Positions 2,260 to 64,000 of a stretch of 64,000 bases of DNA are shown piece after piece (within the stretch, counting starts at the first letter, position 1; each line of letters starts with the position of its first letter). Source of the DNA: Amphiscolops sp. MND2022. Taxonomy: Eukaryota. The stretch is from assembly GCA_964187785.1 (NCBI GenBank), contig OZ076409.1, positions 34,536,001 through 34,600,000 of the forward strand. The letters are read 5' to 3'. A program made the position numbers and the translations under genes. The notes beneath the pieces were generated by a model, which saw only the letters and a program-made list of their open reading frames with translations, did no database searches and was not told the DNA's origin.

Positions 2260-2262
2260 TTA

Positions 2263-40400: not shown

Positions 40401-41847
40401 GCTGTTACCACCTGCAGACTGGAAGTGGACAAGCTCCCCGATTTGTGTCGGGATTTACTCAAGCGGTGGAAATCAGTTCTTCGTTATTTGACCGTCCATT
40501 CTCACCGACAGGAGAACCAGGGAGTGCACAACAAGGTCCAGAGCTTTGAGTGGTCCTTGATATCGGACGAGTTCTTCGCCGTCAGGCTGGAATTCTTTCA
40601 ACGTCTCGTAAATGACTGTAAGTAAACTATGCTTTGACATGTTTCAGTCACATGTCCGTATATGGACCCTTTTGATTTATGTTTTAGATGTGGCCAGCTT
40701 CTCAGTCAATCTCTCCCATAGACGGGATGCAACCTTCTATCTCTGTGGGGAGGTTTGCAAGTTCATCAGTCGACTCTGCTTTCGGGTGTACCAACCTGAC
40801 ACCATTCCCCTCGAGAGTGCTTGGTTTCTCCTGCTGGATTTTAGGACTAGCGACGGGAAGTTCATGCAGGACGACGAGTTCTTGGTCAGACTTAAGATGA
40901 CCAACAAGGTGGCTAGCGCTAGTAATCTGAAAGCTGCAGGATTACATTTTAACAAGAAGTCAAGTAAGGCTGCCATTGATAAAACGGCTGATGCAGCCAA
41001 GACCGACTTTGTGACCAGTGCCAAGAAATATATTGAATTTCTCCTGGGAGCTGTCTTACAACACACTGGCCTTAGCTCCGATCTTATCAAGGGGTTGGCT
41101 GCTTTCGACCCTTATATTATGATGAAACGCCCCACCGATGTGGCCCTCCGACATTTCAGTGTCTTGTATACCACATTCCAGTTGCGTTCCTGGGTCACTG
41201 AGTTAAATGAGGCTGCATGCAGGGATGAGTATCTGGCGTTGTTGGATTATCTCCGAACTTACCATTCTTCCGACCCGAGCTTCACTGATGAGCCAATTGA
41301 CCTCATTGAGTTCCTCATGGGTCTTGATTTCCTCCAGACGCATGAGCATATTCGTTACCTTTTCAAACTATGCTGTTTGTGTTTAACCTCTGTCAGTCCC
41401 CGGTATCCAGCTGTGACCATGGGGAAGGTGGACACACAAGGCCTCCAGACTCGGGTATCTGATGTAGTTCTGCCTTGTCAAAGCTACTTATCTGAGGTTT
41501 CCGGATCCTTGGCCCTTTGCTGTACTGATGTTAATCTCGAGAAGTTTTCCTTACTCTCCTCTTCGTTCGGGCAATCTGGACTCTGCTCTGATTATGATCC
41601 CTGGACGTATGTGGATAACTTCGGGCGCTCTTCGATTTACAAATCCTTCATGTCTTCTCATCGCTCGGTTGCTTCCGCAGAAGTGGGTGCTGCAGATGTT
41701 ACTGTGGCCAGCGTTCCTTCTGTACGAGATGCCCCAGCTGTTAAATTGCCCAGTGGCACTAAGCGAAAACGTATGGAAAGGAGCCAGTCTCGGTCCAGAT
41801 CATCTTCTGTTGTGATGGAGGCTTCTACCAGCACTTCTAAAGACTAA
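37493..41847 (+). pseudogene. Antisense 5-exon zinc-finger / hAT-transposase-like gene, copy with a nonsense mutation
   Basis: Exons 37493-37508, 37707-39667, 39822-40307, 40401-40617, 40688-41847, all GT-AG and phase-compatible. TAA at 39476-39478 where the other copy has TAC. Confidence 0.8.
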
Positions 41848-42078
41848 TTGTGCATATGTATATATGTACATCTCGAGACTGTAATTGTTGTTGATTTGTT
41901 CTTTTGTATATTTTAGTTGTGATTCTATTTCTATGGCTCCGTGTTTATTTATTTGAAAAGGGGTCTCTTGCACGTCCCATCATTTGTTCAAAAAATTTGC
42001 TTCTATGGGACAAAAAGAAAACGTTAAAGAAAAGAAAATAGGTTCGGGGCTCATTTCCTGACCTAAATTCAGTCTTTC

Positions 42079-45000: not shown

Positions 45001-47292
45001 AATGCATTTGAATGTAGCTCTCAGGTTAGCTATGAGGTGGTCAGCGTCGTTTGCTGCAATGCCTATATCGTCCACGTACTGGGCACACTGATCCGCTTTG
45101 ATGACTTTGTCGAGGTATTCTCTCATAAAACTCGAGAATGCGGATAGTGACCGGCTAAGGCCTTGTGCCAAACGTCTGTAGGCGAATGTGCGACTGGCAA
45201 AATTGAAAGCCAACATTTCTATTGAACGTTGGTCGGCCATTGGTAGGCAATGGTATGCCTGCGAACAGTCTAATTTACAGAATAGTTTTTTGCCTGCCAA
45301 GTGTTGGGCAGCATCAACCAAGGTGCTAACAGGGTGATTATTGTTTATATAATCATCCGAGATGAGGTTGTTGATTTTTCTCAAGTCAACTAAAAGTCGT
45401 AGCTTCCCGTTTGGTTTCTTTTGGGCGAATATTGGGCTTGCATACTTTGAGAACGGTAGAGTGGTGATGATGCCATATTTGTGTAACATGGCTAATTCGA
45501 CTAGGATGTCCTCCTTCAAGTTGATAGGAGCTGGAAGACTTTGACTATAGGCTGGGGAATCGTCTTTAGGTGTCAGTTTCACCTTGAAGTCCTCGTTCAT
45601 GCCTATATCGAATCGGTGTCGTGCAAAGATGTCGTGGAATTCCACTAACAATTCTTCTATTTTCTCCTTCTCTTCAGGAGTAAGGGTGGAATCTTTCCAA
45701 TCAAAGTTTTCTAAGAATTTCACACGTGATTCTTCGTCTTTGGTGGGGTCAAGTGTCTCTAGGTCCTGTAAGGCCTGTAATTCTTGAAGGATTCGCTTTT
45801 GTATGGGCGTATGTTCCTCAGGGTTTCCAGGGTTTTCTGGAGTTGGGAACCAGTAGTTTTCAGTGTTTTGTGGATTTCTGTTCGTCTTGATCAGGCTACT
45901 GATGTAATGGGCTGCTTGCTCTTGGTCGTTTTGCAACAAATGCCAGGTTGATGCCGGGTCTACCGGTTTGACGTATTTCATTTGTTCTGGCGTCATGACA
46001 GAGAAATTGGCAATATGTAATCCCTTTTTGAGTTTATAAGGATGGTCTGTGAAATTGTTCACTGGTATCAATATATTGCCATCATTCAGAGTGACCAAGG
46101 CTGGGCAGAATGTGATGTCGCCTTCTTCATGTAGAAGGTCGCTCGGTTGTAAAATTCCAGTGACAGCATTCTCAGGGTACAGTAGGGAATTGGTCCTGAT
46201 TAGGACTCTGTCATTCGGCGGAATGGTTATTTCAGTAGGGTTGAGAATTGGTTCTAGCACATTTGAGTATTTATGGTCAGCTGTTTTTAGCTGCATTGAA
46301 AAGAACGGGAAGTTCAGGATTCCTTGCCTCATGTCCAGAACTGTATGATTTCGCTGGAGGAACATTAGTCCTATGATTGGTCCTGTCAGATGTTCCATTA
46401 CTATGAAGATTTCATGGAACTCAATGTCACCAACTTCGAATTTAAGCTCTATGGTACTTTTAGGAGTTTCCAGTTGCCCATTAGCGACCATGATTTGGAA
46501 GTTTGGAGGCGGACCCTCTCGGATAACTGATTGTGGTGAAAGGAGTCTAATTTTCCGGAGGTCCATTTCGGGGATTGCACTGGACAGCGCTCCAGTGTCG
46601 ATGAGTCCATCAATGGTCAATTCCCCAAAGTCCATAGGGAAATATAGCATGCGTTTCTTGCATTTCAAGTTTATGTTGGTAGACAGGGGTATACAGTCTT
46701 TTTCACCTTCTCTGGTAATAAGGATGTTTTGGAACTGACTTTCGTCAAGTAGTGACTGTGGTATTGTTTCTTCTGGTTTGTCTGAGGTCTCGGTCCCTAA
46801 AGGGTTTGGGAACACCGGATGGCTTGTACCGTCGTTCATCTGCCATGTTTCAATCAATGCTCTGGTTTTCTTGTTATGGGTGATTGGTGGATTGTCATGG
46901 ACTGATCTGTTATAGAGTTCTATATCATCAATAACGTATTGGAATTGTAACAAATCCTGGTTGTAAAGTTCGGTATCCCAATAGGGATCTCGTCCATAGT
47001 CAGGATCTATGTAGGTAGGGTTGTAGTTGTCTACCAGGGGAATGGGCCTGAATCGGCTATTGAAAGCGGATGTGTAATCAGGGTCCCATACAGGAATTGG
47101 TTTTTGGAACAAATGGGTATTATTGTAAGTAATAATGGTAGCTTTTTCCATTTGTTGCTGCCAGACAACAGAAGGATAGCCCATCAATTGTTGATTGTAT
47201 TGGTGAAAAGTTTGCGTTGGAGGGTCCGATCTGATGTATTGTCGGACAGATATTAGTTGGTTATATTGGAGTCGTGGCGAAGTTAGTTTTTT
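42079..47292 (-). CDS. pol: Gypsy Pol polyprotein (protease, RT, RNase H, integrase), intact
   Basis: LIDTGA; YVDD; LMTDAS..E..TDN..ADYLSR; H-HPG..CEQC; IDLL..TDKG..E; WVGPF. The frame is open back to the gag slippery site. Confidence 0.97.
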   Translation of the reverse strand, partial: KKLTSPRLQYNQLISVRQYIRSDPPTQTFHQYNQQLMGYPSVVWQQQMEKATIITYNNTHLFQKPIPVWDPDYTSAFNSRFRPIPLVDNYNPTYIDPDYGRDPYWDTELYNQDLLQFQYVIDDIELYNRSVHDNPPITHNKKTRALIETWQMNDGTSHPVFPNPLGTETSDKPEETIPQSLLDESQFQNILITREGEKDCIPLSTNINLKCKKRMLYFPMDFGELTIDGLIDTGALSSAIPEMDLRKIRLLSPQSVIREGPPPNFQIMVANGQLETPKSTIELKFEVGDIEFHEIFIVMEHLTGPIIGLMFLQRNHTVLDMRQGILNFPFFSMQLKTADHKYSNVLEPILNPTEITIPPNDRVLIRTNSLLYPENAVTGILQPSDLLHEEGDITFCPALVTLNDGNILIPVNNFTDHPYKLKKGLHIANFSVMTPEQMKYVKPVDPASTWHLLQNDQEQAAHYISSLIKTNRNPQNTENYWFPTPENPGNPEEHTPIQKRILQELQALQDLETLDPTKDEESRVKFLENFDWKDSTLTPEEKEKIEELLVEFHDIFARHRFDIGMNEDFKVKLTPKDDSPAYSQSLPAPINLKEDILVELAMLHKYGIITTLPFSKYASPIFAQKKPNGKLRLLVDLRKINNLISDDYINNNHPVSTLVDAAQHLAGKKLFCKLDCSQAYHCLPMADQRSIEMLAFNFASRTFAYRRLAQGLSRSLSAFSSFMREYLDKVIKADQCAQYVDDIGIAANDADHLIANLRATFKCIQEAGLKLTRHKCHFGAKEIDFLGRTITPQGVKPQKQNVQNFLEKTKFPKSKKALQRYLGFLNYYRNYIPRLSERLAPFYKMLKSDEKVLVSKELVQQFEEINKALDKCCELALQQPIPNKQIALMTDASFGAAGYAVLIEDDPNQKFTSLRKSYAPVAYGSKTFTPAQIKMSIYAKEFLAIYFAFKEFGHIFWGAPKPVIILTDNKAVTRFFQTKIIPPALWNACDYVIQFNFVIAHIPGAQNTAADYLSRLEADPKDKLVMKIREDVQTLPIEINVQSAGVSQEEQIFYTNDDNETEEQFWARKEAIRKNPAIDEPTVTIETLSTNLVKQQPDIQVRLKKTNQIIIEQSKDAVLQQLKAKLLHEDYSENILQQDARYRHYTNNLERIVLKDEILTRQYFDETGNVKYHQILLPQHLLRELLHSLHGTAHKHPGISKMLQEIRQRYYYPNMAKYVKKWVEGCEQCAKDKRVPNATITPELLNLPEWDLGPEDAMQIDLLPNRPPSGGYENILTAIDVFSRYLFAYPLTDASAINVAKAIIDIMTKHSYLPTTLITDKGTAFTSTIIAEITQILGITLKCATTKHPQTIGKLERTHASLKTNLKMACGEYRRQWHKYLPLAVLNHNTSYHASIGCEPTRVFHGRIPYNILDHKLGMNPNEPIHPTTEFAEEIQNRTKLLIDKTKQNIMQSYIKYKEYYDRKAKAAPLKEGDYCFVLQPKADHQGSKIPFRDYRWVGPFIVQKTLPNENYIVRRLNTNRTQILHRIRLKKFVPNQPLEDNFREQRLQPDDETIIPQDDLYVITWETNFGEQLDTRGSEPIPASLTNDEQPSTAEANASDASENEVDYVITSDESNLTDRTSHSRDERLNDDVTERNEATAATENNKSDWPNPAVFPKNQENSLPNTADGPENDEIFSERNSMNENDAQNSPKRGDDIIVPEISENDARKESLSPRGGKYNLRPNPNPNYSEDFRY
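47286..47292 (-). promoter_or_regulatory. -1 ribosomal frameshift slippery site A AAA AAC
   Basis: Gag ends TCA AAA AAC TAA; the -1 frame reads LTSPRLQYNQ...QQLMGYP straight into pol. Confidence 0.8.
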
Positions 47293-48400
47293 GACTCATC
47301 ATTTGAAGATGAGGTTTGTGAGTTGGGAGATGTTGATTTGTTTTGTGGTTTCTGCGCCTTTGAATTGGGGTTACCGTCATTAGCGTCATCTGGTCTGGTG
47401 CGTTTGGGTTTGAGATGCGCACCAGCACCTTGCCAACATCTTTCTTCCGGGTGGTTCTTTTTACCACAAGTGCCACACTCCGGGTACGTCTTTTTCTGAG
47501 TCTGTTTGCCTTGTTCGGCATCTTTTTGTTTTTTCTTCTTCAATTTCTCGCAATCTTTGACCATATGGCCCTTTTCTTTGCAATAATTGCACGTTATATC
47601 ACTCATCTGTACATTGGAAGGAACAGTTTTTGTCTTGCCAATCGAAGATGTCATTGATGCTATAGGCAGGTCGTCAGACTCTTCGAGTGCATTCAGTTCC
47701 AGTTCTCGTTCTAGATGAGCGACAATTTCATCGTAAGAGCCATTCTCTAGTCTAGCCATGTTGACTGATCTTTTGAGCTTTGGTGGCAGTTTTGCATATA
47801 GGAGACTGTCGATCATTTTTTGGGCATTGTCTCCGAAGGCTTTTTCTGCTCCTTGGTTAAGCTCTTCAAGAAAGTCTGGCAATTTGGTCGTGTTAGGGTC
47901 AAAGACTAGGCGATGCCATTTATGTTTTGCAGTTGCCTGAGATTCGGGTTTGACGTACTTTCGTCTGAAAATGACAAGTACATCCTCAAGAGTTTGTCTG
48001 TTGGCGTTGCTGATGTTTCTGAATGTTTGGAGTGCATTCTTTCGCAGCAAGGAATGGAAGTGATTGATTTTCATTTTTTCGGTCATCTCAGGCTGCATCT
48101 TGATCATCGTATGGAATAAATCCTCAAACAGCTCAAACTTCTCACTTTTTCCGTCGAATGTCATTGTGTTGGAGTTGACTGGGCGGATAGTGAGTTGTTG
48201 GGCCGTTGTGCGGTTCTGCATACTAGTCAAAACATCTGCTAGCCTGTTGATGGGGTCCTGTTCTGATGCCAGAGCGGGTCGTTCTTGTGCTGGGATCGTC
48301 GTGTCGAGCAGCGGAAGGTCATCACAGGATCTGTTGAGATGACTAGTGGATGGCATTCGTCCTGTGAGAAACTCAGGAACTTCAATTGGAGATTCGTTTT

Positions 48401-48412
48401 CTCCTGTCACCA
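48401..48412 (-). promoter_or_regulatory. Primer-binding site, tRNA-Leu-like
   Basis: TGGTGACAGGAG immediately follows the LTR-terminal CA; one mismatch from the TGGTGTCAGGAG of animal tRNA-Leu PBSs. Confidence 0.7.
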
Positions 48413-50203
48413 TGTCGTAAGCACGGTTGTCCGTTAATGTGAATCCGTCTTTCTGACGGTCACCAAGTGTCTTACTCTTCAAATTGTTCCTAGAGTCTGA
48501 ATTACGCAGAACTTCAGAATATCCTTCCGGTCTCTCAGACGGAACGTTCCATCTCTCTTTGGTCATATGCCCAGAATTGGCCATAAGGGCATTTTGAATC
48601 TGGGGGAGTACTTGATTGCTTATAGCCTCACTTATAGCTTTGGATCTGAATATTAACACTGTCCATCATCTCATCCATCTCCCGCGATATGCGGGAATTT
48701 AATTCACTCGACAGTCTGTTGATCTCAGCGTTAGAACTACCTCTAACTGAGTTCTGTCCTAATTCGGCATTTGGACCAGGCTCGTCAGTTCTAGAGTTGG
48801 GCGATCTATTTTCATCCTCATTTTCAAATTCATCACCAAAAAGACTATTAGGTCTTCTGGCCTGATTACTATTTAAACTTTCACTTCTTTCATTCCTAAT
48901 AAAATGGTCTTCTCCAAGCATTATGTCTAAGTTCTCAATGTCGGATAACATTTCTGCTTCTCTTGATTTTCTTGCTTTCTTTTGCTTCCTTGTGGTAGGC
49001 ATTTAGATAGAAAGTCCGAGGTAAATATTGAATTATTATTTTCGGAAAATAAGAGTCAACTGTTTGGTACAAACGTATTACACTTGTGTGTCCCTCAGGA
49101 GTGAAACTCGTATATATACTCTCTGGGGTATGACTTTTACAAAAAGAATTTCACAAATGACATTCCAACATTCCTAATTAGGACATGGGACTAGTGTTTT
49201 GGCGGGATATTTACTGCAACTACTAGTAATTCCGGTCCAATCGGGAAATACTTTACATTCTATGATCGCAATTATTTATTATCAAAGGCGGCATCAAAAT
49301 ATATACTAGCATATCAAATGGAACTTCTGTCCATCAAAAGAACAAGCACTCATCAGGAATGTAAACAACATTACACACATTCTTTTCAGGCACGTGTCAC
49401 CACGCGACTTGAAATAAGCTTTGCAACGGTGTGAGGGACATCATGTTATTGGGCCTAATACGGCCAATCATCATGCTGATAATTACATGCATCGATCAAC
49501 CGATTAGCACCAAATATATGCACTACTTCACTGTTCAAAGACATATAGCAGCTTCTATGGCCGGAAATAGTCGGCTAATTAATAGGCAAGTACTAATGGA
49601 TTATGGTCTTAAGGACCTAGCGAAAGGTTGAGTGTTAGGGTGAAGCATGGATTATGGAAGGAGATCTGGTTATTATAAGAGTACAAATACAACAAACATA
49701 ACTTGTTTCATGTTAATTTAACACTTTATTTCAGCTTTGAACAAAAGGGACGGAACCGGCCATTTGACCAGAATATTAAAAGAGAATATTAAAAGCGCGG
49801 CAACTGGCCTTACTCGGCCATTAATTAAATAGCATCAACAAACGAGATTACATACTGCGATATGATTGGCTGAGGTAACGTGCTCAAGTGACGCTACCGG
49901 TACAGTGCCGTACGTCACTTGAACACGTTTCCTATACTGCCTTACAGTCGCTATTGCTTTCAATTATCGCATCAATTCTAACCATACATTAATTTGATTT
50001 GGATTACTCCACTTGTACTATTTTTAACAGACTAATTAATGTAACTGAATTAACAAAAATACAAAAGCGTGTTTTGTTACAAAACGTTAGCATAACAGTT
50101 TAAAAGTTTCAGTTTCAGAAAATTGGTAGAGTACCTGGTGCCGTTTCCTGATCTGCGGATGTCGTTGTGATCCTTGTGCCGTCACAGGCGGCAGCCTGCG
50201 ACA
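48413..50203 (-). repeat. Internal shared LTR (1791 bp)
   Basis: Copy of 34057-35849 with a 2-bp deletion and a handful of substitutions; abutted by the PBS. Confidence 0.9.
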
Positions 50204-50903
50204 CTGCAGGAGCGACGAAAAGCAGACTGCCCGCGTTCAGCCCGTTGATATAAGCTTCGCGCCTTAATCTCGTAATGTACTCCGGTTCGTCCCGCGGTGT
50301 TGACCTCTCCATATACCAGTTGACTTTCTCGTCCTTTATGTCATCTACGGACCTGCCACATACCAGACATCCTGTATAGCGCACTCTGCTGATGTCTTCG
50401 TAGGGTCGCGTATTTTGCACATGATAAGAGGCATGAAATCCGCTTGCAAAGGATTGTACTAAGGGAGTGTCATTGCTTGGTCCTTTCTCGTGTTCCGGCG
50501 GCGACATAGGAGACTCCGGTACCGGCAGCAGCGTCTTGCATAGCTCAATTCGCGTCTTCTCCACTCTCTTGGGTGGGGCGTAGCATCTCTCATGGTCGAA
50601 GTATCTTTGGTCCATTTTGGGGGTAGTGTCCTTGTGCGGCTGTGAGTTGCTTGGACCGGCTACCATGTGTTCCTCTTCGAAGTCGTCCGTGGTCATGATT
50701 CTGCCTCCTATCAGCATAGGGCTTGAAGTCACTTCTTTCTCTATTCTCGCGATGAGCTGCTCCGTGTCCGTAGAACAGTCCGTCTCCCATCCTTCTGACA
50801 GTTCGTCGTCGCTACTTGATATGTAAATCACTGAAGCTTCAGACTCATCCGAGCTATCTCCGTCGAAGTCAAATAATTTTCTTGCCAAGTTGTATTTAGA
50901 CAT
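50115..50903 (-). CDS. Accessory acidic SIM-like/CxxC ORF, second copy
   Basis: Two amino-acid differences from the 35761 copy. Confidence 0.7.
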   Translation of the reverse strand: MSKYNLARKLFDFDGDSSDESEASVIYISSSDDELSEGWETDCSTDTEQLIARIEKEVTSSPMLIGGRIMTTDDFEEEHMVAGPSNSQPHKDTTPKMDQRYFDHERCYAPPKRVEKTRIELCKTLLPVPESPMSPPEHEKGPSNDTPLVQSFASGFHASYHVQNTRPYEDISRVRYTGCLVCGRSVDDIKDEKVNWYMERSTPRDEPEYITRLRREAYINGLNAGSLLFVAPAVSQAAACDGTRITTTSADQETAPGTLPIF

Positions 50904-51846
50904 TATAATTTTCTTCGCAATTTTTGAAACTTGTGAGTCGACTGAACGGTGAGGAGATTCAAATTCAAATAAGTTTACCAACTCCCACCTCAAGACGAGT
51001 CGGGTAGTTTCCCGGGAGACTCGTTTCGGCGGTAGAATCTTAGGTTATTCGACCTTATCTGTCGTAAACTTTCATGAATAGAATTTCCAGCGGCGGTTAA
51101 TCCTTTGAAACTTAGGTAGGAACCCCCCATCTTCGTCTTCTCAAGTAGGTAGTCGGAGAGGTGTTAAGTTGACAACAACAAATAATTCCGCTTTCAAGTG
51201 GGTAATTAACATCAAGCTTGATAGTAATTAACGGCATGCGTCAGGTGAAGTCTACTAAAATGGCTTCAGCCAATCAAATTTGAGCTTCAGTAAATTTGAA
51301 AAATGAATAATAAAGATGGTGGAAAATAATAATTTTGAACAACTAAAATGGCGAAAATAATAAATCGAAATAATTCAAAATGGCGAAAATAACAATTTAA
51401 GTAACTATAATAACGGAAATCCCAATTAGGGTAACAAACGAAATGGAACAAGATGACAAACCGAAATGGGGTAAACGGCCGTAATCGGCCAATAATTTCA
51501 TAAGTTGTAAATAATGAAGTAATTTTTGTACATTTCGCTGGCAGACTCCATGTACAGAATAAATATGTAAATAATCCCGTAATATTAGTCTGGTAATAAT
51601 CTTCAGCCACGAACTCCAACTTTCTAATTTCTTCAATTCTTCTACCCAATTCCAATTCCATTTTAATTCAAATTATCTTCTATTTATCTCTTCTCGACTT
51701 ATAGTTATTTCCCTCAAACGACACTTCTTAGCCGATTCTTCACCCCAAAGCAACCCTCGATCCTTCTCCTCCAGCCGGTTTCGGCCATATCCATCAGCCT
51801 CTTCAGTCGTACAAGGACTCGTTCCCTCATTCGATTCAGTTCAAGG

Positions 51847-54800
51847 ATGTCTTCATCTGAAGGTTGGTTTGTTTTTATTCCGAACTAAATTTAACTTGAT
51901 CAGGGTTAAATTCGTTCACAACATGCTTCCTGTTCCCATTAGTAAACGCGTGATAACACGTTTTATTCAAATTTTCAAACACTTCCGGAAGTTTTCTAAT
52001 GCGGTAAAATGGATTCTTTTCAAGGAAGCTCACCGCCAAATTTCATCTCTTTCTGTTTAGAGAATCAGAGTATAGATGAAGCTCAAACTCCAACCAACAC
52101 CGTGGAGAACAACCTTACTCAGTCTGATCAAACGTTGGGTCAATTGCCTGAATCGACTGCTAATCTTGAGCTGGGACCTCTCCCACCTCTTCTTCCCCAC
52201 AATAGAGCCGTATCTTTCCAGGGCCAGAACATGATTGAATCCCCTCTAAGTACTGATAGCAACGTGGATGTCACTACTTATGCAACTGAGATGGTTCAAC
52301 GGATGGAGGCAACTCAAATTGCTGTGTCACCGCCAGTAATGAGAACAGATGTAGACAAGCTTGTAGAGGCTTCCAATACGGAGGGTCTGTGCACACCCCC
52401 ACCAGTTGACCCCAGGAAAATTAGTACTCCCAAGCAGATTAGCCAGGACCCAGGAGAATCGCCGAGTTTGTCTCAGCTCGAGTCGCTTCTACAAATTGCC
52501 CCTACCACTTCCTCTGGATTTCCAGAACTACAAGTTGGTATAGACACGTCAAGAGGGATTCCTGGAGTATCTTCTTTACAAGGTGAAGAAGATTCTTCTT
52601 CCATAATCAGTGGCCCCCCTCCATTACCAAAAGGGAAAACCCGAGAGATTGAACTAACGAGTGATATGGATACCTCAGGAGCAGCATCCGGGATTGATGA
52701 CCTTCCCCCTCTTTATGGTGCAATTCCAGGGTGTTCAGAGCTCGATTCCGAGAAGGACAGCGATACTGAACTTGATGAATACATCAACAACCCACTCAGG
52801 ACACCGGCGGCCGGGACCTCGCAACAAGAAGAACCTTTAAGGGAGCTGTCTGGGCGTAGCAGAGCCATCTTAAAACAGTATTTCGAAACTGAAGATCCTT
52901 ACACTTTCCCTGTAGGTCACCGGACAGTGGCTTTCACTGAGCCCCAGATTTACCACCTGTTGAGAGTCCTGACCGACGAGGCAATCAGCATGACCTGTAC
53001 AACAATGGAGCAAATGGTCATAGGTGCAGTAAGAGGGAGACCAGCCACGGCACCCTCTAGAACCAAGCAATTCCGAAGCCGCGCTCAGACTCCTAGACCC
53101 CAGCAAGTTGGAAGTACCAGTTCCGAAGGGTTCATTACCGATCCCGAACAGGATTCTGAAGCCAGTGGGGATTTTAGTACGTCGCTCGAGACCGGAGGAA
53201 TATCAATGCTGGACGATACTGATAGTTCTGGAGAAATGGCCCTGATAGCTGACAGTTTTAGGAAGACATCGAACAAGGACGTCAGACCTGAACAGCACAC
53301 GTCTATACCACTTGGGTCAGTTGGCAGAGGAGACGAATCCACCGGACAAAGTAGCCTGGATGTCACACTGTCAGAAGTGCGGGAGCAGTCCTCGACTCAA
53401 AAACCTCGAAGTAGAAAACTTGTCAAAAGGACCTCCAAGGCCAAAACCACCCAGAGACGAGGAGTACCAATGCGGGAGGAGTTCTTCTCCAAGATTGGGT
53501 GGACTCGGTCCTTCATATCTGGTCCTGCAGACCCCCTTCACAATCCGCATATGGTGTGGTGCCATATGTGTAAGAAAAATTTCTCAATCAAGACGAAAGG
53601 GGTTGTCGAGATCCTAAGGCATCACAGGACAGAGAAACACCTTCGAAAAGATCAACGTTGGCGCTATGAGCACCTCAAGACCGTCGACCCCATCACAGGA
53701 AAAGTCCAACACAGGGTCAGAGGGAGGAATGGGAAGATCCTAAGCAAAGTTGAGTTGGCACAAGAACTCCCAAAGTTCATCCATACCGAACTTGTAGACG
53801 TGGGAGAAAGGTTTCCCTTTTATGAGGACTACCTCAAGGGAAGTACTACTGCCTTGGTAACTCCCCAGTCACGGGCCAAAACCCAAATCTGCCTCATCGG
53901 AGACTTCATTCAAAGACAGGGAGATTTAACCGTCCTTCGGAATCTATGGTCAAGAGTGGGGTCTTTCACTGATTACCAGGCAGCTTTCCACGATTTCGAT
54001 TGGAGTGAGGAAAGGATCACAGTAAGTATAACTTGTGTGCCTTGTTCGTTATCTAGTCACATGATAGCATATTGACAGGCATATATACACGCGCATATAT
54101 ATACATAAATAAACACACGTGAGCTAACATAAGTGAAATTGTGGCACCCAGTAAATACAGTCCTTTCCATTTCAGGCTATATTCCAGCACATCTTCAATT
54201 GTGTGATGGAAGATATAGCTGAACAAGTGAACTCAGCACAGCATTTCTCCATTGAATTCGAGGACAGTGGGACAGATCGCCTGATGTTCCTGCGCTATTG
54301 GAGGGAGACTAAACTCTGTAGAGTTTTCATCTGCCGGAGTGCGCTTCCTGCTGCCGATCTCACTGGCGAATTGGGATCTTTGTCGCGGTTGTTATCAGTG
54401 GTGTCAACTGACCCCGATATAGTAGCCTGTTCAGGCTGCTCAGTTGACTACATACGAGCAATTGACCAGCATCCTTCCTATTCACGAGGCATTCAGAGCT
54501 GTTTCCGTTTTGAAACACTTGATCTGCGGCTCTTGATGCACAAGTACACATACAGCGTGTTTGGCCGGATTGATATGTTCTCCGTCCTCCAGTGCCTCCT
54601 CGTTTCCCTGGGCGGTTCTGTCACAGAAGACTGGGTCCTAGAATCGCCTGAACTCACCCGAGTTAGTATATTTTGCTCAATTCAGATAGTAGCATCCTAC
54701 GCAGTGGATAGGACGTGAACCATACTATATGTTTTGCAATTACATTGTATTTAGGCTGTTACCACCTGCAGACTGGAAGTGGACAAGCTCCCCGATTTGT

Positions 54801-56201
54801 GTCGGGATTTACTCAAGCGGTGGAAATCAGTTCTTCGTTATTTGACCGTCCATTCTCACCGACAGGAGAACCAGGGAGTGCACAACAAGGTCCAGAGCTT
54901 TGAGTGGTCCTTGATATCGGACGAGTTCTTCGCCGTCAGGCTGGAATTCTTTCAACGTCTCGTAAATGACTGTAAGTAAACTATGCTTTGACATGTTTCA
55001 GTCACATGTCCGTATATGGACCCTTTTGATTTATGTTTTAGATGTGGCCAGCTTCTCAGTCAATCTCTCCCATAGACGGGATGCAACCTTCTATCTCTGT
55101 GGGGAGGTTTGCAAGTTCATCAGTCGACTCTGCTTTCGGGTGTACCAACCTGACACCATTCCCCTCGAGAGTGCTTGGTTTCTCCTGCTGGATTTTAGGA
55201 CTAGCGACGGGAAGTTCATGCAGGACGACGAGTTCTTGGTCAGACTTAAGATGACCAACAAGGTGGCTAGCGCTAGTAATCTGAAAGCTGCAGGATTACA
55301 TTTTAACAAGAAGTCAAGTAAGGCTGCCATTGATAAAACGGCTGATGCAGCCAAGACCGACTTTGTGACCAGTGCCAAGAAATATATTGAATTTCTCCTG
55401 GGAGCTGTCTTACAACACACTGGCCTTAGCTCCGATCTTATCAAGGGGTTGGCTGCTTTCGACCCTTATATTATGATGAAACGCCCCACCGATGTGGCCC
55501 TCCGACATTTCAGTGTCTTGTATACCACATTCCAGTTGCGTTCCTGGGTCACTGAGTTAAATGAGGCTGCATGCAGGGATGAGTATCTGGCGTTGTTGGA
55601 TTATCTCCGAACTTACCATTCTTCCGACCCGAGCTTCACTGATGAGCCAATTGACCTCATTGAGTTCCTCATGGGTCTTGATTTCCTCCAGACGCATGAG
55701 CATATTCGTTACCTTTTCAAACTATGCTGTTTGTGTTTAACCTCTGTCAGTCCCCGGTATCCAGCTGTGACCATGGGGAAGGTGGACACACAAGGCCTCC
55801 AGACTCGGGTATCTGATGTAGTTCTGCCTTGTCAAAGCTACTTATCTGAGGTTTCCGGATCCTTGGCCCTTTGCTGTACTGATGTTAATCTCGAGAAGTT
55901 TTCCTTACTCTCCTCTTCGTTCGGGCAATCTGGACTCTGCTCTGATTATGATCCCTGGACGTATGTGGATAACTTCGGGCGCTCTTCGATTTACAAATCC
56001 TTCATGTCTTCTCATCGCTCGGTTGCTTCCGCAGAAGTGGGTGCTGCAGATGTTACTGTGGCCAGCGTTCCTTCTGTACGAGATGCCCCAGCTGTTAAAT
56101 TGCCCAGTGGCACTAAGCGAAAACGTATGGAAAGGAGCCAGTCTCGGTCCAGATCATCTTCTGTTGTGATGGAGGCTTCTACCAGCACTTCTAAAGACTA
56201 A
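51847..56201 (+). CDS. Antisense 5-exon gene, ~1279-aa zinc-finger / degenerate hAT-transposase-like protein, intact copy
   Basis: Exons 51847-51862, 52061-54021, 54176-54661, 54755-54971, 55042-56201 sum to 3840 nt and are open; contains WCHMCKKNFSI..G..EILRHHRTEKH finger. Confidence 0.8.
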
Positions 56202-56432
56202 TTGTGCATATGTATATATGTACATCTCGAGACTGTAATTGTTGTTGATTTGTTCTTTTGTATATTTTAGTTGTGATTCTATTTCTATGGCTCCGTGTTT
56301 ATTTATTTGAAAAGGGGTCTCTTGCACGTCCCATCATTTGTTCAAAAAATTTGCTTCTATGGGACAAAAAGAAAACGTTAAAGAAAAGAAAATAGGTTCG
56401 GGGCTCATTTCCTGACCTAAATTCAGTCTTTC

Positions 56433-59400
56433 TTAGTATCTGAAGTCTTCTGAGTAGTTCGGATTAGGGTTTGGCCTGAGATTATATTTCCCTCCTCTAG
56501 GGCTCAGACTTTCATTTCTAGCATCGTTTTCGGATATTTCGGGCACGATAATATCATCCCCCCTTTTTGGAGAGTTTTGTGCATCGTTTTCATTCATTGA
56601 ATTTCTTTCTGAAAAAATTTCATTATTTTCCGGTCCATCTGCCGTATTCGGCAAAGAATTTTCTTGGTTTTTCGGGAAAACGGCCGGATTCGGCCAATCA
56701 GATTTGTTATTTTCTGTCGCTGCAGTAGCTTCATTTCTTTCAGTGACGTCATCATTCAATCGTTCATCTCGGCTGTGCGACGTACGATCGGTAAGATTTG
56801 ATTCGTCACTCGTGATTACATAATCCACTTCATTCTCGCTTGCGTCACTTGCATTCGCTTCTGCCGTACTCGGCTGTTCGTCATTCGTCAAGCTGGCTGG
56901 AATAGGCTCGCTGCCTCGCGTATCTAGCTGTTCGCCAAAATTTGTTTCCCACGTTATTACATACAAGTCGTCTTGCGGAATGATTATTTCGTCATCCGGC
57001 TGTAGACGCTGTTCTCGGAAATTGTCCTCAAGTGGCTGATTTGGAACAAACTTTTTGAGACGAATTCGATGCAAGATCTGCGTTCTATTTGTATTAAGCC
57101 TGCGGACAATGTAATTCTCATTAGGTAAGGTCTTCTGGACTATAAATGGTCCAACCCAGCGATAATCCCTGAATGGAATTTTTGATCCTTGATGATCCGC
57201 TTTCGGCTGTAATACAAAACAATAATCGCCCTCTTTGAGTGGGGCGGCTTTTGCTTTTCGGTCGTAATACTCCTTATATTTGATATATGACTGCATGATG
57301 TTCTGCTTTGTTTTGTCAATAAGGAGTTTGGTCCGGTTCTGGATTTCTTCTGCGAATTCAGTAGTCGGATGGATTGGTTCATTTGGATTCATTCCAAGTT
57401 TGTGATCCAAGATGTTGTATGGGATTCTCCCATGGAACACTCTTGTGGGTTCGCATCCGATACTGGCATGATAACTAGTGTTATGATTGAGAACTGCTAA
57501 AGGCAAATATTTATGCCATTGTCGGCGATATTCCCCACATGCCATTTTCAGGTTCGTTTTCAATGAGGCATGTGTTCGCTCTAATTTCCCGATAGTTTGC
57601 GGGTGTTTCGTCGTTGCACATTTTAGGGTAATGCCTAAAATCTGTGTAATTTCCGCAATGATCGTGGAAGTAAAGGCAGTTCCTTTGTCCGTAATGAGCG
57701 TCGTCGGTAGGTAAGAATGTTTGGTCATAATATCTATGATTGCTTTAGCTACATTGATCGCTGATGCGTCCGTAAGGGGATAAGCGAACAAGTATCGAGA
57801 GAAGACATCAATTGCGGTTAAAATATTTTCGTATCCTCCACTTGGGGGAAGATTCGGCAATAAGTCGATTTGCATGGCGTCTTCGGGTCCAAGGTCCCAT
57901 TCCGGCAAGTTAAGTAGTTCAGGCGTGATTGTTGCGTTTGGGACTCGTTTGTCCTTTGCACATTGTTCACACCCTTCTACCCACTTTTTGACATATTTTG
58001 CCATGTTAGGGTAATAATACCTTTGTCTGATTTCCTGCAACATTTTTGAAATCCCGGGATGTTTATGCGCTGTCCCGTGAAGGGAGTGGAGCAATTCCCG
58101 GAGGTGTTGCGGGAGCAAAATTTGATGGTATTTAACATTCCCCGTTTCATCAAAATATTGCCTTGTCAGGATTTCGTCCTTTAGTACAATTCGTTCCAGA
58201 TTATTTGTATAATGTCTATATCGGGCATCCTGTTGCAGTATGTTTTCTGAATAGTCTTCGTGAAGGAGCTTTGCCTTCAGTTGTTGCAATACTGCATCTT
58301 TGGACTGCTCGATGATTATCTGGTTTGTTTTCTTTAATCGGACTTGAATGTCTGGTTGTTGTTTGACCAGATTGGTTGACAGAGTTTCTATGGTAACAGT
58401 GGGCTCGTCAATTGCTGGATTTTTCCTGATTGCTTCTTTTCTTGCCCAAAACTGTTCTTCTGTTTCGTTGTCGTCATTCGTATAGAATATTTGTTCTTCC
58501 TGTGATACCCCCGCAGATTGAACATTTATCTCAATGGGTAAAGTTTGTACGTCTTCGCGGATTTTCATGACTAATTTATCCTTCGGATCTGCCTCCAATC
58601 GGGACAAATAGTCAGCTGCTGTGTTCTGTGCCCCCGGGATATGTGCTATGACAAAATTGAACTGAATTACATAATCACATGCATTCCACAGGGCTGGGGG
58701 TATTATTTTTGTTTGAAAAAATCTCGTCACAGCTTTGTTGTCTGTGAGGATAATGACCGGTTTGGGTGCACCCCAGAATATATGTCCAAATTCTTTGAAT
58801 GCAAAATAAATTGCAAGAAACTCTTTGGCATATATCGACATCTTTATCTGGGCTGGGGTGAAGGTTTTAGAGCCATAAGCCACCGGTGCATAGGATTTCC
58901 GAAGGGAAGTAAATTTCTGGTTCGGATTATCTTCTATCAGTACTGCGTATCCTGCTGCGCCAAAACTTGCATCTGTCATTAATGCAATTTGCTTGTTCGG
59001 GATGGGTTGTTGTAGGGCCAAGTCGCAACATTTGTCTAGTGCTTTATTGATTTCTTCGAATTGTTGGACTAATTCTTTCGATACTAGGACTTTTTCGTCA
59101 CTTCTTAGCATCTTGTAGAATGGAGCAAGGCGTTCGGAGAGTCTTGTGATATAATTCCTGTAGTAATTTAGGAATCCCAAATATCGTTGTAAAGCCTTTT
59201 TCGACTTCGGGAATTTGGTCTTTTCCAGAAAGTTTTGCACGTTCTGTTTCTGGGGTTTGACGCCTTGCGGGGTAATAGTTCTTCCGAGAAAATCAATTTC
59301 TTTGGCACCAAAGTGACATTTGTGCATTGTCAATTTAAGGCCTGCTTCCTGAATGCATTTGATGTAGCTCTCAGGTTAGCTATGAGGTGGTCAGCGTCGT

Positions 59401-61072
59401 TTGCTGCAATGCCTATATCGTCCACGTACTGGGCACACTGATCCGCTTTGATGACTTTGTCGAGGTATTCTCTCATAAAACTCGAGAATGCGGATAGTGA
59501 CCGGCTAAGGCCTTGTGCCAAACGTCTGTAGGCGAATGTGCGACTGGCAAAATTGAAAGCCAACATTTCTATTGAACGTTGGTCGGCCATTGGTAGGCAA
59601 TGGTATGCCTGCGAACAGTCTAATTTACAGAATAGTTTTTTGCCTGCCAAGTGTTGGGCAGCATCAACCAAGGTGCTAACAGGGTGATTATTGTTTATAT
59701 AATCATCCGAGATGAGGTTGTTGATTTTTCTCAAGTCAACTAAAAGTCGTAGCTTCCCGTTTGGTTTCTTTTGGGCGAATATTGGGCTTGCATACTTTGA
59801 GAACGGTAGAGTGGTGATGATGCCATATTTGTGTAACATGGCTAATTCGACTAGGATGTCCTCCTTCAAGTTGATAGGAGCTGGAAGACTTTGACTATAG
59901 GCTGGGGAATCGTCTTTAGGTGTCAGTTTCACCTTGAAGTCCTCGTTCATGCCTATATCGAATCGGTGTCGTGCAAAGATGTCGTGGAATTCCACTAACA
60001 ATTCTTCTATTTTCTCCTTCTCTTCAGGAGTAAGGGTGGAATCTTTCCAATCAAAGTTTTCTAAGAATTTCACACGTGATTCTTCGTCTTTGGTGGGGTC
60101 AAGTGTCTCTAGGTCCTGTAAGGCCTGTAATTCTTGAAGGATTCGCTTTTGTATGGGCGTATGTTCCTCAGGGTTTCCAGGGTTTTCTGGAGTTGGGAAC
60201 CAGTAGTTTTCAGTGTTTTGTGGATTTCTGTTCGTCTTGATCAGGCTACTGATGTAATGGGCTGCTTGCTCTTGGTCGTTTTGCAACAAATGCCAGGTTG
60301 ATGCCGGGTCTACCGGTTTGACGTATTTCATTTGTTCTGGCGTCATGACAGAGAAATTGGCAATATGTAATCCCTTTTTGAGTTTATAAGGATGGTCTGT
60401 GAAATTGTTCACTGGTATCAATATATTGCCATCATTCAGAGTGACCAAGGCTGGGCAGAATGTGATGTCGCCTTCTTCATGTAGAAGGTCGCTCGGTTGT
60501 AAAATTCCAGTGACAGCATTCTCAGGGTACAGTTGGGAATTGGTCCTGATTAGGACTCTGTCATTCGGCGGAATGGTTATTTCAGTAGGGTTGAGAATTG
60601 GTTCTAGCACATTTGAGTATTTATGGTCAGCTGTTTTTAGCTGCATTGAAAAGAACGGGAAGTTCAGGATTCCTTGCCTCATGTCCAGAACTGTATGATT
60701 TCGCTGGAGGAACATTAGTCCTATGATTGGTCCTGTCAGATGTTCCATTACTATGAAGATTTCATGGAACTCAATGTCACCAACTTCGAATTTAAGCTCT
60801 ATGGTACTTTTAGGAGTTTCCAGTTGCCCATTAGCGACCATGATTTGGAAGTTTGGAGGCGGACCCTCTCGGATAACTGATTGTGGTGAAAGGAGTCTAA
60901 TTTTCCGGAGGTCCATTTCGGGGATTGCACTGGACAGCGCTCCAGTGTCGATGAGTCCATCAATGGTCAATTCCCCAAAGTCCATAGGGAAATATAGCAT
61001 GCGTTTCTTGCATTTCAAGTTTATGTTGGTAGACAGGGGTATACAGTCTGGTTCACCTTCTCTGGTAATAAG
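56433..61072 (-). pseudogene. pol: Gypsy Pol, second copy: 5'-truncated with a frameshift in RT
   Basis: Near-identical to 42079-46722; 1-bp deletion near 59362 and 3-bp deletion near 58103. Confidence 0.95.
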
Positions 61073-61083
61073 AGTGCCAGTTT

Positions 61084-61153
61084 CCTGGTGCCGTTTCCTG
61101 ATCTGCGGATGTCGTTGTGATCCTTGTGCCGTCACAGGCGGCAGCCTGCGACA
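61084..61153 (-). repeat. 5' LTR remnant (outer 70 bp)
   Basis: Identical to 35780-35849 and followed by the TSD CGAAG. Confidence 0.9.
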
Positions 61154-61592
61154 CGAAGTATTCAAAAGAAGACCCTTTAGGTTTGCATAAAACATTTTTC
61201 CAAGCCGAACTTTTTTTTCAAAAAGTGAAGGGGTACCTTTTGACCAAACGTTTTTTTTTAAAAAAGTCTCATCAGTCCCACATTACCAAAAAAGAACGTA
61301 ATAAAGCACATTTAGTCTCGGAAAGTTTTTCATTAACAGAACAAGCAAAAAGATATGTTTTAAAAACATTTCTAATTGTTTTCTTCAAAAATCATTTAGT
61401 AACTCGAGAGACTAGAGAGACTCTGTTTGATTCCATAGAAGGGCATTGCTGTTTTTAGTCGGCGCAATTTAACAAAATGAGCCCGACTATTACAAAGGCA
61501 AGTTTTTTTCTTTTTTTTTTGCGACAGATGAAAGAATGTATGTGTAGTGGAAACTTTTTACAGAACTACTAAACTAGTAGTAGTTAAACTAC

Positions 61593-64000
61593 TTCTATCA
61601 AAAGCTGAATCTCATCTAATCAAGTTTCCTAATGAGTTTTTCTCGGGTGAACCTAATCGTCATCAGATACCCGTTACGATCTTCATTGTGGCGTCTGGAT
61701 GTCTAGACTTCTAATGATATACCACAGTTAAAATTTTTAAAAAGTCTCACAGTACCAGAAAAGCCCAAAGGGGGACCCTTTGCTCCTATATAGCTTCTAA
61801 ATTTTTAGTAAAAATGTAAAATCAAAGCGGAATCTTTGGTCTCTTTAGGTACCCTTTAGACCTTCAGATAGTGGGCCATTAAATTGAATACTGTCATATG
61901 ACGAAAAAAACTGGACGATGTAATAGTCGGGGACATTTCTTACAAATAGCTTAGTCTAAAATGTAGGTTTCAAAGTAAATCAGATAGAAATATCTTTGAT
62001 TATTGTGAAGTTAGAAGACTAATAGTTCGCATTTAATACGTACGAAGAGTTATATCATTTTGGCTGTTCTACGCCATACGTATATGCAATTCTTTACAGG
62101 TTGGCGATACTGCGCCAATCAAGACATTGACCTAATGGCATGGCCGATAACTTTTTCAATCAGGTTTTCAATTTTTCACTATTATTCGCAGTTTTAAATG
62201 TTCAACATTGGCGACGGGATAAGAAACATACTTTTTTCAAGATAACTTCGTTTTTTGATTTGAACAAATTCATATATATTCCAATTTTCACGGTATAGCT
62301 ACTAGAGCTTTCAAACAAAGACCTTTTCAGCTACATGAGTGCTTCCAAATTTAAAGTTGTCCCTTTTGTTTCAGCTTTGTGTGGGGACGTCCTGACTCAG
62401 GAATCGACCGGGGCCTTTAGGACAAACAGAGCACGACAGAGGTGGGCATCAGCCATCAGCACCCGACAACAGTCCTTTAAACTGCTCAGTTTTGGCTCCC
62501 GGCTGCTTTTTTAACTTTTTGCATAGAAACCCCACCCTCGAGACTTTTCACTGTTGGCACCTTAATGACGAGGCCACCAAGTTGCTGATCACACTGGCTT
62601 AACTGCTAACTCTCGGCAATTCACTGTTCACACTTGACCCGACTGACTCGATGTACTCGGCAACCAATAGAAACTAAGCAACTGTAGACTGTAGTATAGA
62701 GGTTGTGGCTGACAAAAATATTTGCTGCTACTCGTGGGCGAAAGCAAAGAAACAGCCAATTGAAATGAAGCAACATATCACGTGCTCTCATTGTGACTGG
62801 CACAAACGGAACCCTCGCACCCAATTAAATTTGAGACGCGAGCAAACTCGGTGAAAAAAGACTCATCGAAAAACATTGCAATTTCATACACTTCATCTGT
62901 AAATACTCCTTTCAATTTTTTATTTTACGATTTTGGTGCTTAATGAAAACTTTAAAAACCGACTTTTAAAATGAATTTCAATTTATTTCAATTTTTAAAA
63001 TCTAGATCAAAGCTCTGAATCAATCAAAAGTTCATGATTTCAATCACAATCATAAAAATCTACAAAAAATTACAAAAGTTTCGGAGCTTTGAGCTTTATA
63101 ATTTTACTGACAGACTTGATACTTCAAGAATTTTTGAATTTCCAAAATATTCATTATTGTTTTGATTCTATGATTGTAATGTACTTGTAGATTAGCCTAC
63201 TTTATTTTGATTGGATGATTAATTTCACCCTTTTATTTCACCTCGAATGAAACGAGACCCCATTTTGAGCGACTAAATTTTCCTAACTTTTTAAACAACA
63301 CTCCTTTGGTGCCATTGACTCTCCTTTTAAACGATTGCCTACCTTTGGCCTCAAGCGTATGTGTAATTAACTTCTTCACTTTCCTTTTTTTCAATACTCC
63401 TCTTTCAAATTGCTGAAAACGAGAAAATTTTAGCATATAACGCATTTAGCATAGATGGAGAGTCGAAGTATCCAAACCTAAGTGAAGCTATAGGTACAGA
63501 AGCAGCAGCTAAAGTCCCAGGAGCAAACGCTTCTAAGGCTTGATCTGAATTAGAACATAATTTTCTGTTTGAAATCCAATAAAATTTTGAAAAAGTTATA
63601 TATAAAAGCACTTTCAATAATTTTGGAAACTTTTGAACTTTAGTGTGCAATATCAAAAACTACTGGTCACAATCGCATTTTGTGACCATTTTGGGATGTA
63701 AATTTTCAACGAGAGCGTTTTCAGAAAAAAATGTTGAATTCAAAAATTAGTGATGTGAATTGGAAGAACAAAGTTTTTCTCGCGCATTTTTGGTTACAAA
63801 CAACGGTTTTCGAGATATTGCACGATAATTTTTGGCATAGCCAAAAGTCTAAACCAAACTTAGTGTTATATCTTTTGTAAACAAGCTGGAAAGGTCCCAA
63901 GTCGGCGCCCCGCTCATGGGTAAAGTGTGTTAAATATGCGAAGGGACATTAATGTGAGAACATTTATCAACTTTAGTGCCAAAAGTACCCAAAGGGATAC
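61593..64000 (+). repeat. Segmental duplication, copy 2 (runs off the window)
   Basis: Matches 31307-33715 with a few SNPs and a 1-bp indel. Confidence 0.95.

Follow-up and report, generated by a model that had tools for sequence, protein, structure and literature searches.

A window of 64,000 nucleotides (nt) from Amphiscolops sp. MND2022 (assembly GCA_964187785.1, OZ076409.1:34,536,001-34,600,000, forward strand) carries a long gene at 51847-56201, on the plus strand of the window and antisense to gag and pol of a Ty3/Gypsy long terminal repeat (LTR) retrotransposon. This gene is probably an integral accessory gene of the retroelement, expressed in antisense and spliced, which encodes a nuclear nucleic-acid-binding factor. 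The reading is based on the conservation of the splice sites among diverged copies, on the fixed place of the gene beside pol, and on the purifying selection acting on the structured parts of the protein. Positions are those of the window unless a locus is named.

The initial annotation had joined five exons through four introns, and this joining was reproduced by a script, giving 3840 nt and 1279 amino acids (aa) with zero internal stops; the four peptide strings that it quoted were also all found in the open reading frames (ORFs). In this model, an uncertain exon 1 of 16 nt (51847-51862) is followed by intron 1 (51863-52060, GT..AG, phase 1, 198 nt) and, from the acceptor at 52060/52061, by exon 2 (52061-54021). 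Further downstream on the same plus strand are intron 2 (54022-54175, GTAAGT..CAG, phase 0, 154 nt), exon 3 (54176-54661, 162 aa), intron 3 (54662-54754, GTTAGT..TAG, phase 0, 93 nt), exon 4 (54755-54971, 72 aa and 1 nt), intron 4 (54972-55041, GTAAGT..TAG, phase 1, 70 nt) and exon 5 (55042-56201, 385 aa and the stop codon at 56199-56201). Splice sites were compared among 11 copies, the window copy and ten further loci (L011-L020) chosen to span the subfamilies. Exon-5 identity of the ten loci to the window copy is 99, 84, 83, 82, 79, 75, 68, 67, 67 and 65%, and exon-2 protein identity among the compared copies goes down to 50%. The donors and acceptors of introns 2-4 are located at the same codon positions in all 11 copies; the donors are GTAAGT, GTTAGT, GTGAGT and once GTAAAA, and the acceptors consist of a pyrimidine run and YAG. 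Conservation of the introns and their splice sites at this divergence is far more than expected by chance.

As a side observation, the match to exon 4 in the most diverged subfamily is in two pieces approximately 80 nt apart (L015:4598-4914, L017:4597-4922 and L018:4596-4921), which may represent either an extra intron or an insertion.

Introns 2-4 of the four-intron model thus stand in every copy compared, but support for the 16-nt exon 1 and intron 1 is no better than for translation beginning at the ATG at 52009. The ATG of exon 1 is kept in 9 of the 11 copies and its donor GT in 10, and all 11 have the ATG at 52009, always closely preceded by an in-frame stop and set between A at -3 and G at +4. 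The frame from this ATG is equally open (1291 aa), and in it the main 5′ coding exon (52009-54021, plus strand) encodes a region of approximately 470 aa rich in Ser, Thr, Pro and Glu (S/T/P/E) and then the zinc-finger region. From the sequence, we lean toward this start rather than toward the 16-nt first exon.

The region of the proposed exon 1 and intron 1 is covered by a block of 220 nt with a non-coding-like pattern of conservation (51843-52062, plus strand). Column identity is 0.93-0.98 at 51890-51909 and 51982-52061, compared with 0.48-0.66 upstream (51779-51852), and it is down to 0.64 by 52102-52121, in coding sequence. Between subfamilies the block is more conserved in nucleotides than the adjoining coding sequence, and the 17 codons after ATG 52009 show few changes which, by eye, are mostly non-synonymous. 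The block contains CACGTG, GCTTCCTG and the palindrome ACTTCCGGAAGT, which we take to be E-box and ETS-type promoter motifs, and its reverse complement has a donor-like site, GGTGAG. It could be a putative antisense (or bidirectional) promoter, an element of the first intron, or a signal of the sense RNA. A promoter combined with a start at ATG 52009 is favoured because of the conservation of the block, the mostly non-synonymous changes after this ATG, and the promoter-type motifs.

The carrier of the gene is a Ty3/Gypsy LTR retrotransposon, with gag and a pol arranged as protease, reverse transcriptase (RT), RNase H and integrase. The window holds two copies of it, A and B, and the gene under study belongs to copy B. 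Pol of copy A is a 1738-codon ORF on the minus strand (42079-47295), in which Pfam places gag-asp_proteas at residues 227-315, RVT_1 at 626-791 (3e-23), RT_RNaseH at 883-981, Integrase_H2C2 at 1179-1234 and rve at 1255-1350, and gag (47283-49002, minus strand) matches DUF1759 and zf-CCHC. All three independent full copies with flanks have direct repeats of 1.74-1.80 kb (99.9, 99.7 and 98.7% identical) approximately 14.35 kb apart and are surrounded by 5-bp target site duplications (TSDs; CATCA, GTTTC and ACTGC). The LTR termini are TG..CA (TGTCG...GCGACA), and a stretch starting with TGG that resembles a primer binding site (PBS), TGGTGACAGGAGA, adjoins the 5′ LTR in 4 of 4 copies. The full element is approximately 16 kb long and is composed, in sense order, of 5′ LTR, gag, pol, antisense gene, small sense ORF and 3′ LTR. 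The antisense placement between pol and the 3′ LTR, as initially proposed, is therefore correct, except that the gene does not abut the LTR, since the sense ORF at 50115-50903 intervenes.

The gene was found tail-to-tail with pol in 20 of 20 loci, consisting of 10 close copies (both window copies included) and 10 diverged ones. Because whole elements including the gene are bounded by LTRs and 5-bp TSDs, and no terminal inverted repeats (TIRs) are present around the gene, it is an integral accessory gene of the retroelement and not a nested transposon. The initial annotation had seen no TIRs and no 8-bp TSD at the gene, and in agreement with this, no inverted repeat is conserved among the 11 copies and no 8-bp duplication was found. 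A recent passenger found in some copies only, either a nested DNA transposon or a host gene acquired by transduction, would fit the GC content, which is 47-49% in the gene, above the 42-43% of pol and the approximately 35% of the surrounding genome. It would also fit the one sizeable pair of inverted repeats that brackets the gene in the window copy, which is 28 nt long, imperfect and 79% complementary. However, this pair recurs in one of the ten other copies (L020, a 99% relative), is missing from the remaining nine, and is flanked by no 8-bp duplication. The gene has the same place in all the loci, including subfamilies with saturated synonymous divergence, and no longer host-type protein was found, as none of the 6231 candidates was a longer or fused relative of exon 5. 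With these results, a passenger origin is extremely improbable.

Selection was estimated as the ratio of non-synonymous to synonymous substitution rates (dN/dS) by the Nei-Gojobori method for the 45 possible pairs among 10 copies. Where dS was saturated, the pair was set aside (29 of 45 for exon 5, and the same number for exon 3), and rows of frameshifted copies, recognized by dN >0.4, were excluded (polC of L011 and L018, ex2N and orf309 of L012, ex2C and polC of L015). Between subfamilies, dN/dS was 0.04-0.11 for exon 5 (13 finite-dS pairs, dS 0.85-3.0) and 0.03-0.13 for exon 3 (13 pairs). The zinc-finger part of exon 2 gave 0.02-0.04 (4 pairs, dS 1.27-2.92), exon 4 gave 0.03-0.12, and the disordered N-terminus approximately 0.32-0.35 (pairs W-L011 and W-L019); for the C-terminal 870 codons of pol, the value was 0.07-0.09 (6 clean full-length pairs). 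The purifying selection on the structured parts of the protein, with 0.02-0.13 between subfamilies and thus not near 1, matches that on pol in strength. Within one subfamily, dN/dS was 0.79-1.10 for exon 5 (3 pairs, dS 0.03-0.04) and 0.48-0.56 for exon 3 (3 pairs), and the within-subfamily pairs overall had dS of 0.03-0.10 and dN/dS of 0.2-1.1. The combination of low values between subfamilies and high values within them points to a functional transposon gene, which would be under purifying selection in active lineages and decay neutrally after insertion.

At least 107 genomic copies of exon 5 (of 7747 first-look candidates) and 150 of exon 3 (of 6646 candidates) were scored, and 95 and 137 of them, respectively, had no stop, although this intact fraction is an overestimate because the scored copies are the best-scoring ones. 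These numbers bear on the idea that the antisense RNA itself is the functional product, as double-stranded RNA or small RNAs regulating the element, and that the long ORF is incidental. RNA-level roles of retroelement antisense transcripts are described in the review PMC7264820, and the transcript would pair with approximately 4 kb of the genomic RNA. Nevertheless, the low dN/dS with saturated dS, the open frames of exons 5 and 3 and the kept splice phases indicate selection on the protein, which contradicts an RNA-only function and makes it very improbable. The antisense RNA could have a second role beside the protein.

The gene and pol differ in strand composition, with an AT skew of +0.14 in the first half of the gene (52001-54000) and of -0.22 in pol. 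Their divergence is also discordant as to which copies are close (L013, L016 and L019 versus the window copy). Compared with L013, the window copy has a pol dS of 0.29 and 95.7% protein identity, while exon 5 has a dS of 3.0, saturation is reached in exons 3 and 4, and identity in exon 2 is 66%. The relation is reversed with L019, where dS is 1.49 for pol (367 codons) and 0.87 for exon 5. In its simplest reading, which is based on 10 copies, this pattern suggests recombination between subfamilies in which the accessory region was swapped against gag-pol, i.e., an exchange of accessory modules between retroelement lineages.

The protein consists of approximately 470 residues of S/T/P/E-rich sequence, a CCHH finger, approximately 125 further residues of exon 2, and the parts encoded by exons 3, 4 and 5. 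The bias of the N-terminus noted initially is evident, as S/T/P/E/D/Q/G account for 57-63% of the first approximately 470 residues. For protein searches and structure predictions, each exon was used alone as a contiguous translation, and family alignments were built from 33 exon-5 and 28 exon-3 members. The zinc-finger-like motif C-x2-C-x14-HH-x4-H (53557-53640, plus strand) precedes the core and is kept in 6 of 7 aligned genomic copies, L016 having C changed to R; its sole Pfam match is Zn_ribbon_19 with an E of 0.05, and it was assigned to no zinc-finger Pfam family. More generally, neither any exon nor the 33 and 28 aligned relatives matched a Pfam family of known meaning at E ≤ 1.

Exon 3 has E29, R54 and D133 among its invariant residues, and E27, D81 and E151 are nearly invariant. 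Its AlphaFold2 model (28 sequences) has a pLDDT of 50 and shows a helix, three strands, a helix, a strand, a helix, a strand and a helix, a predicted order as in RNase-H-like cores. Exon 5 contains the conserved motifs GL..FDP and LF.LSCLCLT and ends in a basic tail, with KRKR and a Ser/Arg-rich sequence; its model (33 sequences) is all-alpha with a pLDDT of 71, and residues 1-230 are mostly above 85. Public assemblies contain 438 exon-5 relatives (E ≤ 0.001), the most distant with 27% identity, and for exon 3 there are 142. Nearly all of them are ORF fragments of ENA assemblies, and the protein family is widespread. Among metagenome loci, 32 pattern matches were obtained and 0 were confirmed.

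The initial annotation had described the protein as looking like a hAT transposase without catalytic activity. In this reading, a Buster-like hAT transposase derivative would have been taken over by the retroelement, with the finger, an interrupted RNase-H-like core and the C-terminal region kept, and catalysis would be lost, although invariant acidic residues remain in exon 3. Several leads agree with it. ESM Atlas neighbours of the zinc-finger part are the ZBED5, GTF2IRD2, FAM200C, EPM2AIP1 and ZMYM6 clusters (0.77-0.83), and among those of exon 5 are two hAT-dimerisation clusters (0.88), where scores <0.9 are leads only according to the guidance of the tool itself. The order of strands and helices in the exon-3 model is RNase-H-like, and the top Foldseek match of this model among 350,542 chains is the Hermes structure 8edg_A (E 0.054). 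Lower in the same list are the Hermes structures 8sjd, 2bw3 and 4d1q, together with lentiviral integrases, RNase HI and poxvirus resolvases. In a weak mapping, exon 3 corresponds to Hermes 153-269 and exon 5 to Hermes 368-609, which is collinear. In addition, the best hhalign and unfiltered hmmsearch alignments set FSIEFE..LRYW on the Buster strand motif FSVIADE..LRYV, and 7 of the 11 best forward hmmsearch rows fall in this region.

Statistical support for a hAT identity was not obtained by any of these methods, that is, no significant match was found with Pfam, PDB profiles, hhalign or Foldseek, and the leads are weak, though concordant. The best E of hmmsearch --max was 0.077 among 71 sequences, compared with 0.95 for reversed sequences, and is non-significant. 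PF05699, PF14291 and PF27073 matched 0 of 33 exon-5 and 0 of 28 exon-3 members at E ≤ 1, whereas four of four ordinary hAT ORFs of the same genome, used as positive control, matched PF05699 at 1e-11 to 1e-17. As reference, an alignment of 34 Buster-type hAT proteins (A3), which carry DUF4371, PF27073 and PF05699, was used, and hhalign against it gave Prob 0.27% (E 0.22) for exon 3 and 0.08% for exon 5. When the alignments A1 and A2 were compared by hhalign with seven hAT ORFs of the genome, scores were 11.6-26.0, against 11.2-20.3 for reversed sequences, and the top score of 26.0 spans only 11 columns at the first residues of the hAT ORF. PDB sequence profiles gave nothing relevant, the only match being Taq polymerase at E 1.8 for A1, with none for A2.

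The structural comparison was similar. With the exon-5 model, Foldseek found no match at E ≤ 0.001 in PDB or BFVD, and for the exon-3 model, whose top match is Hermes as described, no hAT match reached significance. VIA-wide with the exon-3 model returned periplasmic-binding-like and unrelated alpha/beta folds, and Hermes was absent from the top 50. The Buster hallmarks of A3 (GYDGA, HCxxHxLNL and SSxxAERSFS) have by eye no counterpart in A1 or A2, and the TIRs and the 8-bp TSD of a hAT element are lacking, as shown above. Moreover, the model behind two of the leads is poor, and the motif match had been the starting point of the initial annotation. We nevertheless keep a hAT derivation as a tentative reading, somewhat on the doubtful side, because the leads come from three non-overlapping parts of the protein and are collinear on one structure. 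One Buster-type hAT copy of the same genome, L049 (G000:C2:63664500-63667500), has one frameshift between its DUF4371-like and dimerisation halves and was used only as a source of reference protein.

A working nuclease or transposase-like enzyme acting on the DNA of the element, in integration-site choice, circle resolution or excision, would be consistent with the invariance or near invariance of the acidic residues E27, E29, D81, D133 and E151 of exon 3, with the very strong purifying selection on this exon (dN/dS 0.03-0.13), and with its predicted RNase-H-like order of secondary structure. However, a catalytic triad could not be mapped on the model, and the residue aligned to the first catalytic Asp of the Buster proteins is an invariant Glu, in an alignment that is itself non-significant. 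The element already encodes a complete integrase, and no terminal inverted repeats are present that could serve as substrate. An enzymatic role is therefore unlikely.

Returning to the accessory-factor reading given at the outset, we propose that the gene would be transcribed from its own internal promoter, represented by the block 51843-52062 just upstream of ATG 52009, and that the antisense transcript would be spliced by the host. Retrotransposition would not remove the introns in any round, since they are reverse-complemented, and hence unspliceable, in the genomic (sense) RNA; survival of an intron in antisense orientation is the principle of antisense-intron retrotransposition reporters. 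The predicted product of approximately 1290 aa would consist of a disordered S/T/P/E-rich N-terminus, the CCHH finger, an alpha/beta core of RNase-H-like order, a helical domain and a KRKR/SR-rich tail. As a committed guess, it would be a nuclear nucleic-acid-binding factor needed for the propagation of the element, for example in transcription control or in escape from silencing, and would not be an enzyme of the retrotransposition reaction itself. A more specific version holds that a Gypsy lineage has long depended on a spliced antisense gene, that the product is a diverged hAT/Buster-like fold turned into a DNA-binding regulator, and that the module was shuffled by recombination; taken as a whole this is speculative, and we regard it as distinctly doubtful.

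Several points weigh against the accessory-factor reading. The promoter, the splicing and the start codon are deduced from conservation alone, and the function is a guess, since no domain of known function was matched. The argument for nuclear localisation is a basic tail recognised by eye. The model also leaves unexplained how the element would avoid RNA silencing, which would be expected from an antisense mRNA able to pair with 4 kb of its genomic RNA. As for the carrier, visual inspection revealed no purine-rich tract ahead of the 3′ LTR. Finally, both copies in the window are in damaged elements: copy A has a stop in the gene and a frameshift in gag, and copy B is without gag and has only a remnant of the 5′ LTR.

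The arrangement in the window was determined by self-BLAST, in which 34057-46722 is repeated as 48413-61072 (12,666 bp, 99.7% identical). The whole block 34057-61153 is bracketed by CGAAG, at 34052-34056 on the left and 61154-61158 on the right, and a paralogous empty site just past the window end (L051:1-761) has a single CGAAG. Since three LTRs and two internal regions are inside a single CGAAG duplication, the window copies are one insertion turned into a tandem LTR-internal-LTR-internal-LTR dimer. From the left, the dimer contains the 3′ LTR of copy A with TG..CA ends (34057-35849, minus strand), as delimited by self-BLAST, the three independent copies and the termini. It is followed by the sense accessory ORF of copy A (35761-36549, minus strand, called ORF309 and counted from the first conserved Met), by the antisense gene of copy A (37493-41847, plus strand), whose premature TAA is at 39476-39478, and by the pol and gag of copy A described above. 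The shared LTR (48413-50203, minus strand), with the sense-strand TGGTGACAGGAGA next to it, serves copy A as 5′ LTR and copy B as 3′ LTR. Copy B has lost approximately 3.9 kb, comprising the start of pol, gag and most of the 5′ LTR, so that its pol (56433-61072, minus strand) lacks the 5′ side removed by the internal deletion, and the last 81 nt of its 5′ LTR (61073-61153, minus strand) are left as a remnant.

Some features of gag and pol were observed in addition. The gag frame opens approximately 196 codons inside the LTR (48413-49002) and crosses the PBS-like site into the internal region; a similar arrangement, with the gag start within the LTR, is present in yeast Ty1. In the shared LTR this frame has a frameshift near 48640, where the ORFs 48628-49002 and 47283-48665 overlap, and it is continuous in the other LTR copy (34043-34648). 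Pol extends approximately 200 codons beyond the last integrase domain match (42079-42900) as an acidic, Ser/Asn/Glu-rich tail for which no Pfam match was found, and 231 bp separate the end of pol from the stop of the antisense gene.

The sense ORF between the antisense gene and the 3′ LTR (50115-50903 in copy B, minus strand) encodes approximately 262 aa from its Met, and its last approximately 29 codons are within the LTR. It is kept in 10 of 10 diverged loci, has a dN/dS of 0.15 in one unsaturated clean pair, and gave no match in Pfam. Its N-terminus is acidic and Ser-rich and contains VIYISSSDDE, a hydrophobic followed by an acidic stretch which presumably resembles SUMO-interaction motifs, and a CxxC pair is also present. 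A second accessory protein may be encoded by this ORF, with expression either from the same intergenic region or through splicing of a sense RNA.

The insertion site is a head-to-tail repeat unit of approximately 3.2 kb, in which 31307-33715 corresponds to 61593-64000 (99.7%), with 33716-34056 and 61154-61580 in addition. At the other end of the window, 2-3075 (minus strand) is very AT-rich and contains three consecutive ORFs, with lengths of 475 (cut off by the window edge), 236 and 270 aa, none of which matched Pfam at E ≤ 0.01. C..C/H..H spacings recur in the first of these ORFs.

Little is understood of the extra genes of LTR retrotransposons, and the present gene family lends itself unusually well to their study. 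It encodes a large protein under strong constraint, one genome contains many of its diverged subfamilies and hundreds of relatives exist elsewhere, its natural introns mark the strand of the gene, and the putative promoter is sharply conserved. If the protein were indeed derived from a transposase, it would be an example of a retroelement recruiting the enzyme of a DNA transposon, the reverse of the usual domestication by the host, and would amount to a stable alliance between the two.

Among known proteins, Buster-type hAT transposases and their domesticated derivatives (ZBED5, FAM200, GTF2IRD2, EPM2AIP1 and ZMYM1/6; PF14291, PF27073, PF27046 and PF05699) share with the present one the order of parts, namely a finger, an alpha/beta core and a helical region, as well as the motif-level likeness of FSIEFE..LRYW to FSVIADE..LRYV, and they are its nearest language-model neighbours. 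It differs from them in that sequence and profile comparisons gave no significant match, a dimerisation domain is not recognisable and CxxH or DGA motifs were by eye absent, and its gene is carried by a retroelement instead of a TIR element or a host locus.

As to antisense genes, those of plant elements are much smaller than approximately 1290 aa. HBZ of human T-cell leukemia virus type 1 (HTLV-1) is a spliced antisense retroviral gene that starts in the 3′ LTR and encodes a small bZIP protein, a nuclear regulator. The two genes are alike in principle, being antisense, spliced, protein-coding and directed to nuclear regulation, the last being presumed in the present case. They differ in that the presumed promoter here is internal, approximately 1.8 kb from the LTR, and in that the proteins are unrelated. 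In Botrytis cinerea, brtn is reportedly an additional antisense gene of Boty-like Ty3/Gypsy elements (Zhao et al. 2011, Virology 417:248), and would share with the present gene that both are antisense extra genes of non-plant Gypsy elements. The review PMC7264820 mentions an antisense promoter in the 3′ LTR of HTLV.

The same review describes antisense ORFs that plant Ty3/Gypsy elements carry between pol and the 3′ LTR, namely gene23 of maize Grande, rice RIRE2, Silene Retand and Phaseolus PvRetro13 (PMC7264820). Most copies of a family contain them, their conservation is like that of the other element proteins, and they resemble no known protein; for Grande gene23, its own upstream promoter and nuclear localisation are reported, and for antisense extra genes of LTR retrotransposons no function is stated to be known in any organism (PMC7264820). 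Compared with these plant ORFs (aORF-3R), the gene of Amphiscolops has the same place and orientation, is likewise regularly present (20 of 20 loci) and has a dN/dS of 0.02-0.13 against 0.07-0.09 for pol. It differs by three or four conserved spliceosomal introns, the word 'intron' being absent from PMC7264820, by the extra sense ORF between the gene and the LTR, and by a host that does not seem to be a plant, and the likeness is one of layout. In a limited search of the main texts of the open-access literature, no description of a comparable gene in an animal element was found. Thus, the layout of an antisense extra gene between pol and the 3′ LTR is already known from plant and fungal Gypsy elements, and what is new here is the size of approximately 1290 aa, the conservation of three or four introns, an architecture with a CCHH finger that may be transposase-like, the sense ORF accompanying the gene, a host that from the relatives of its other transposons and its style of introns looks like an invertebrate animal, and the abundance and diversity of the family within one genome.

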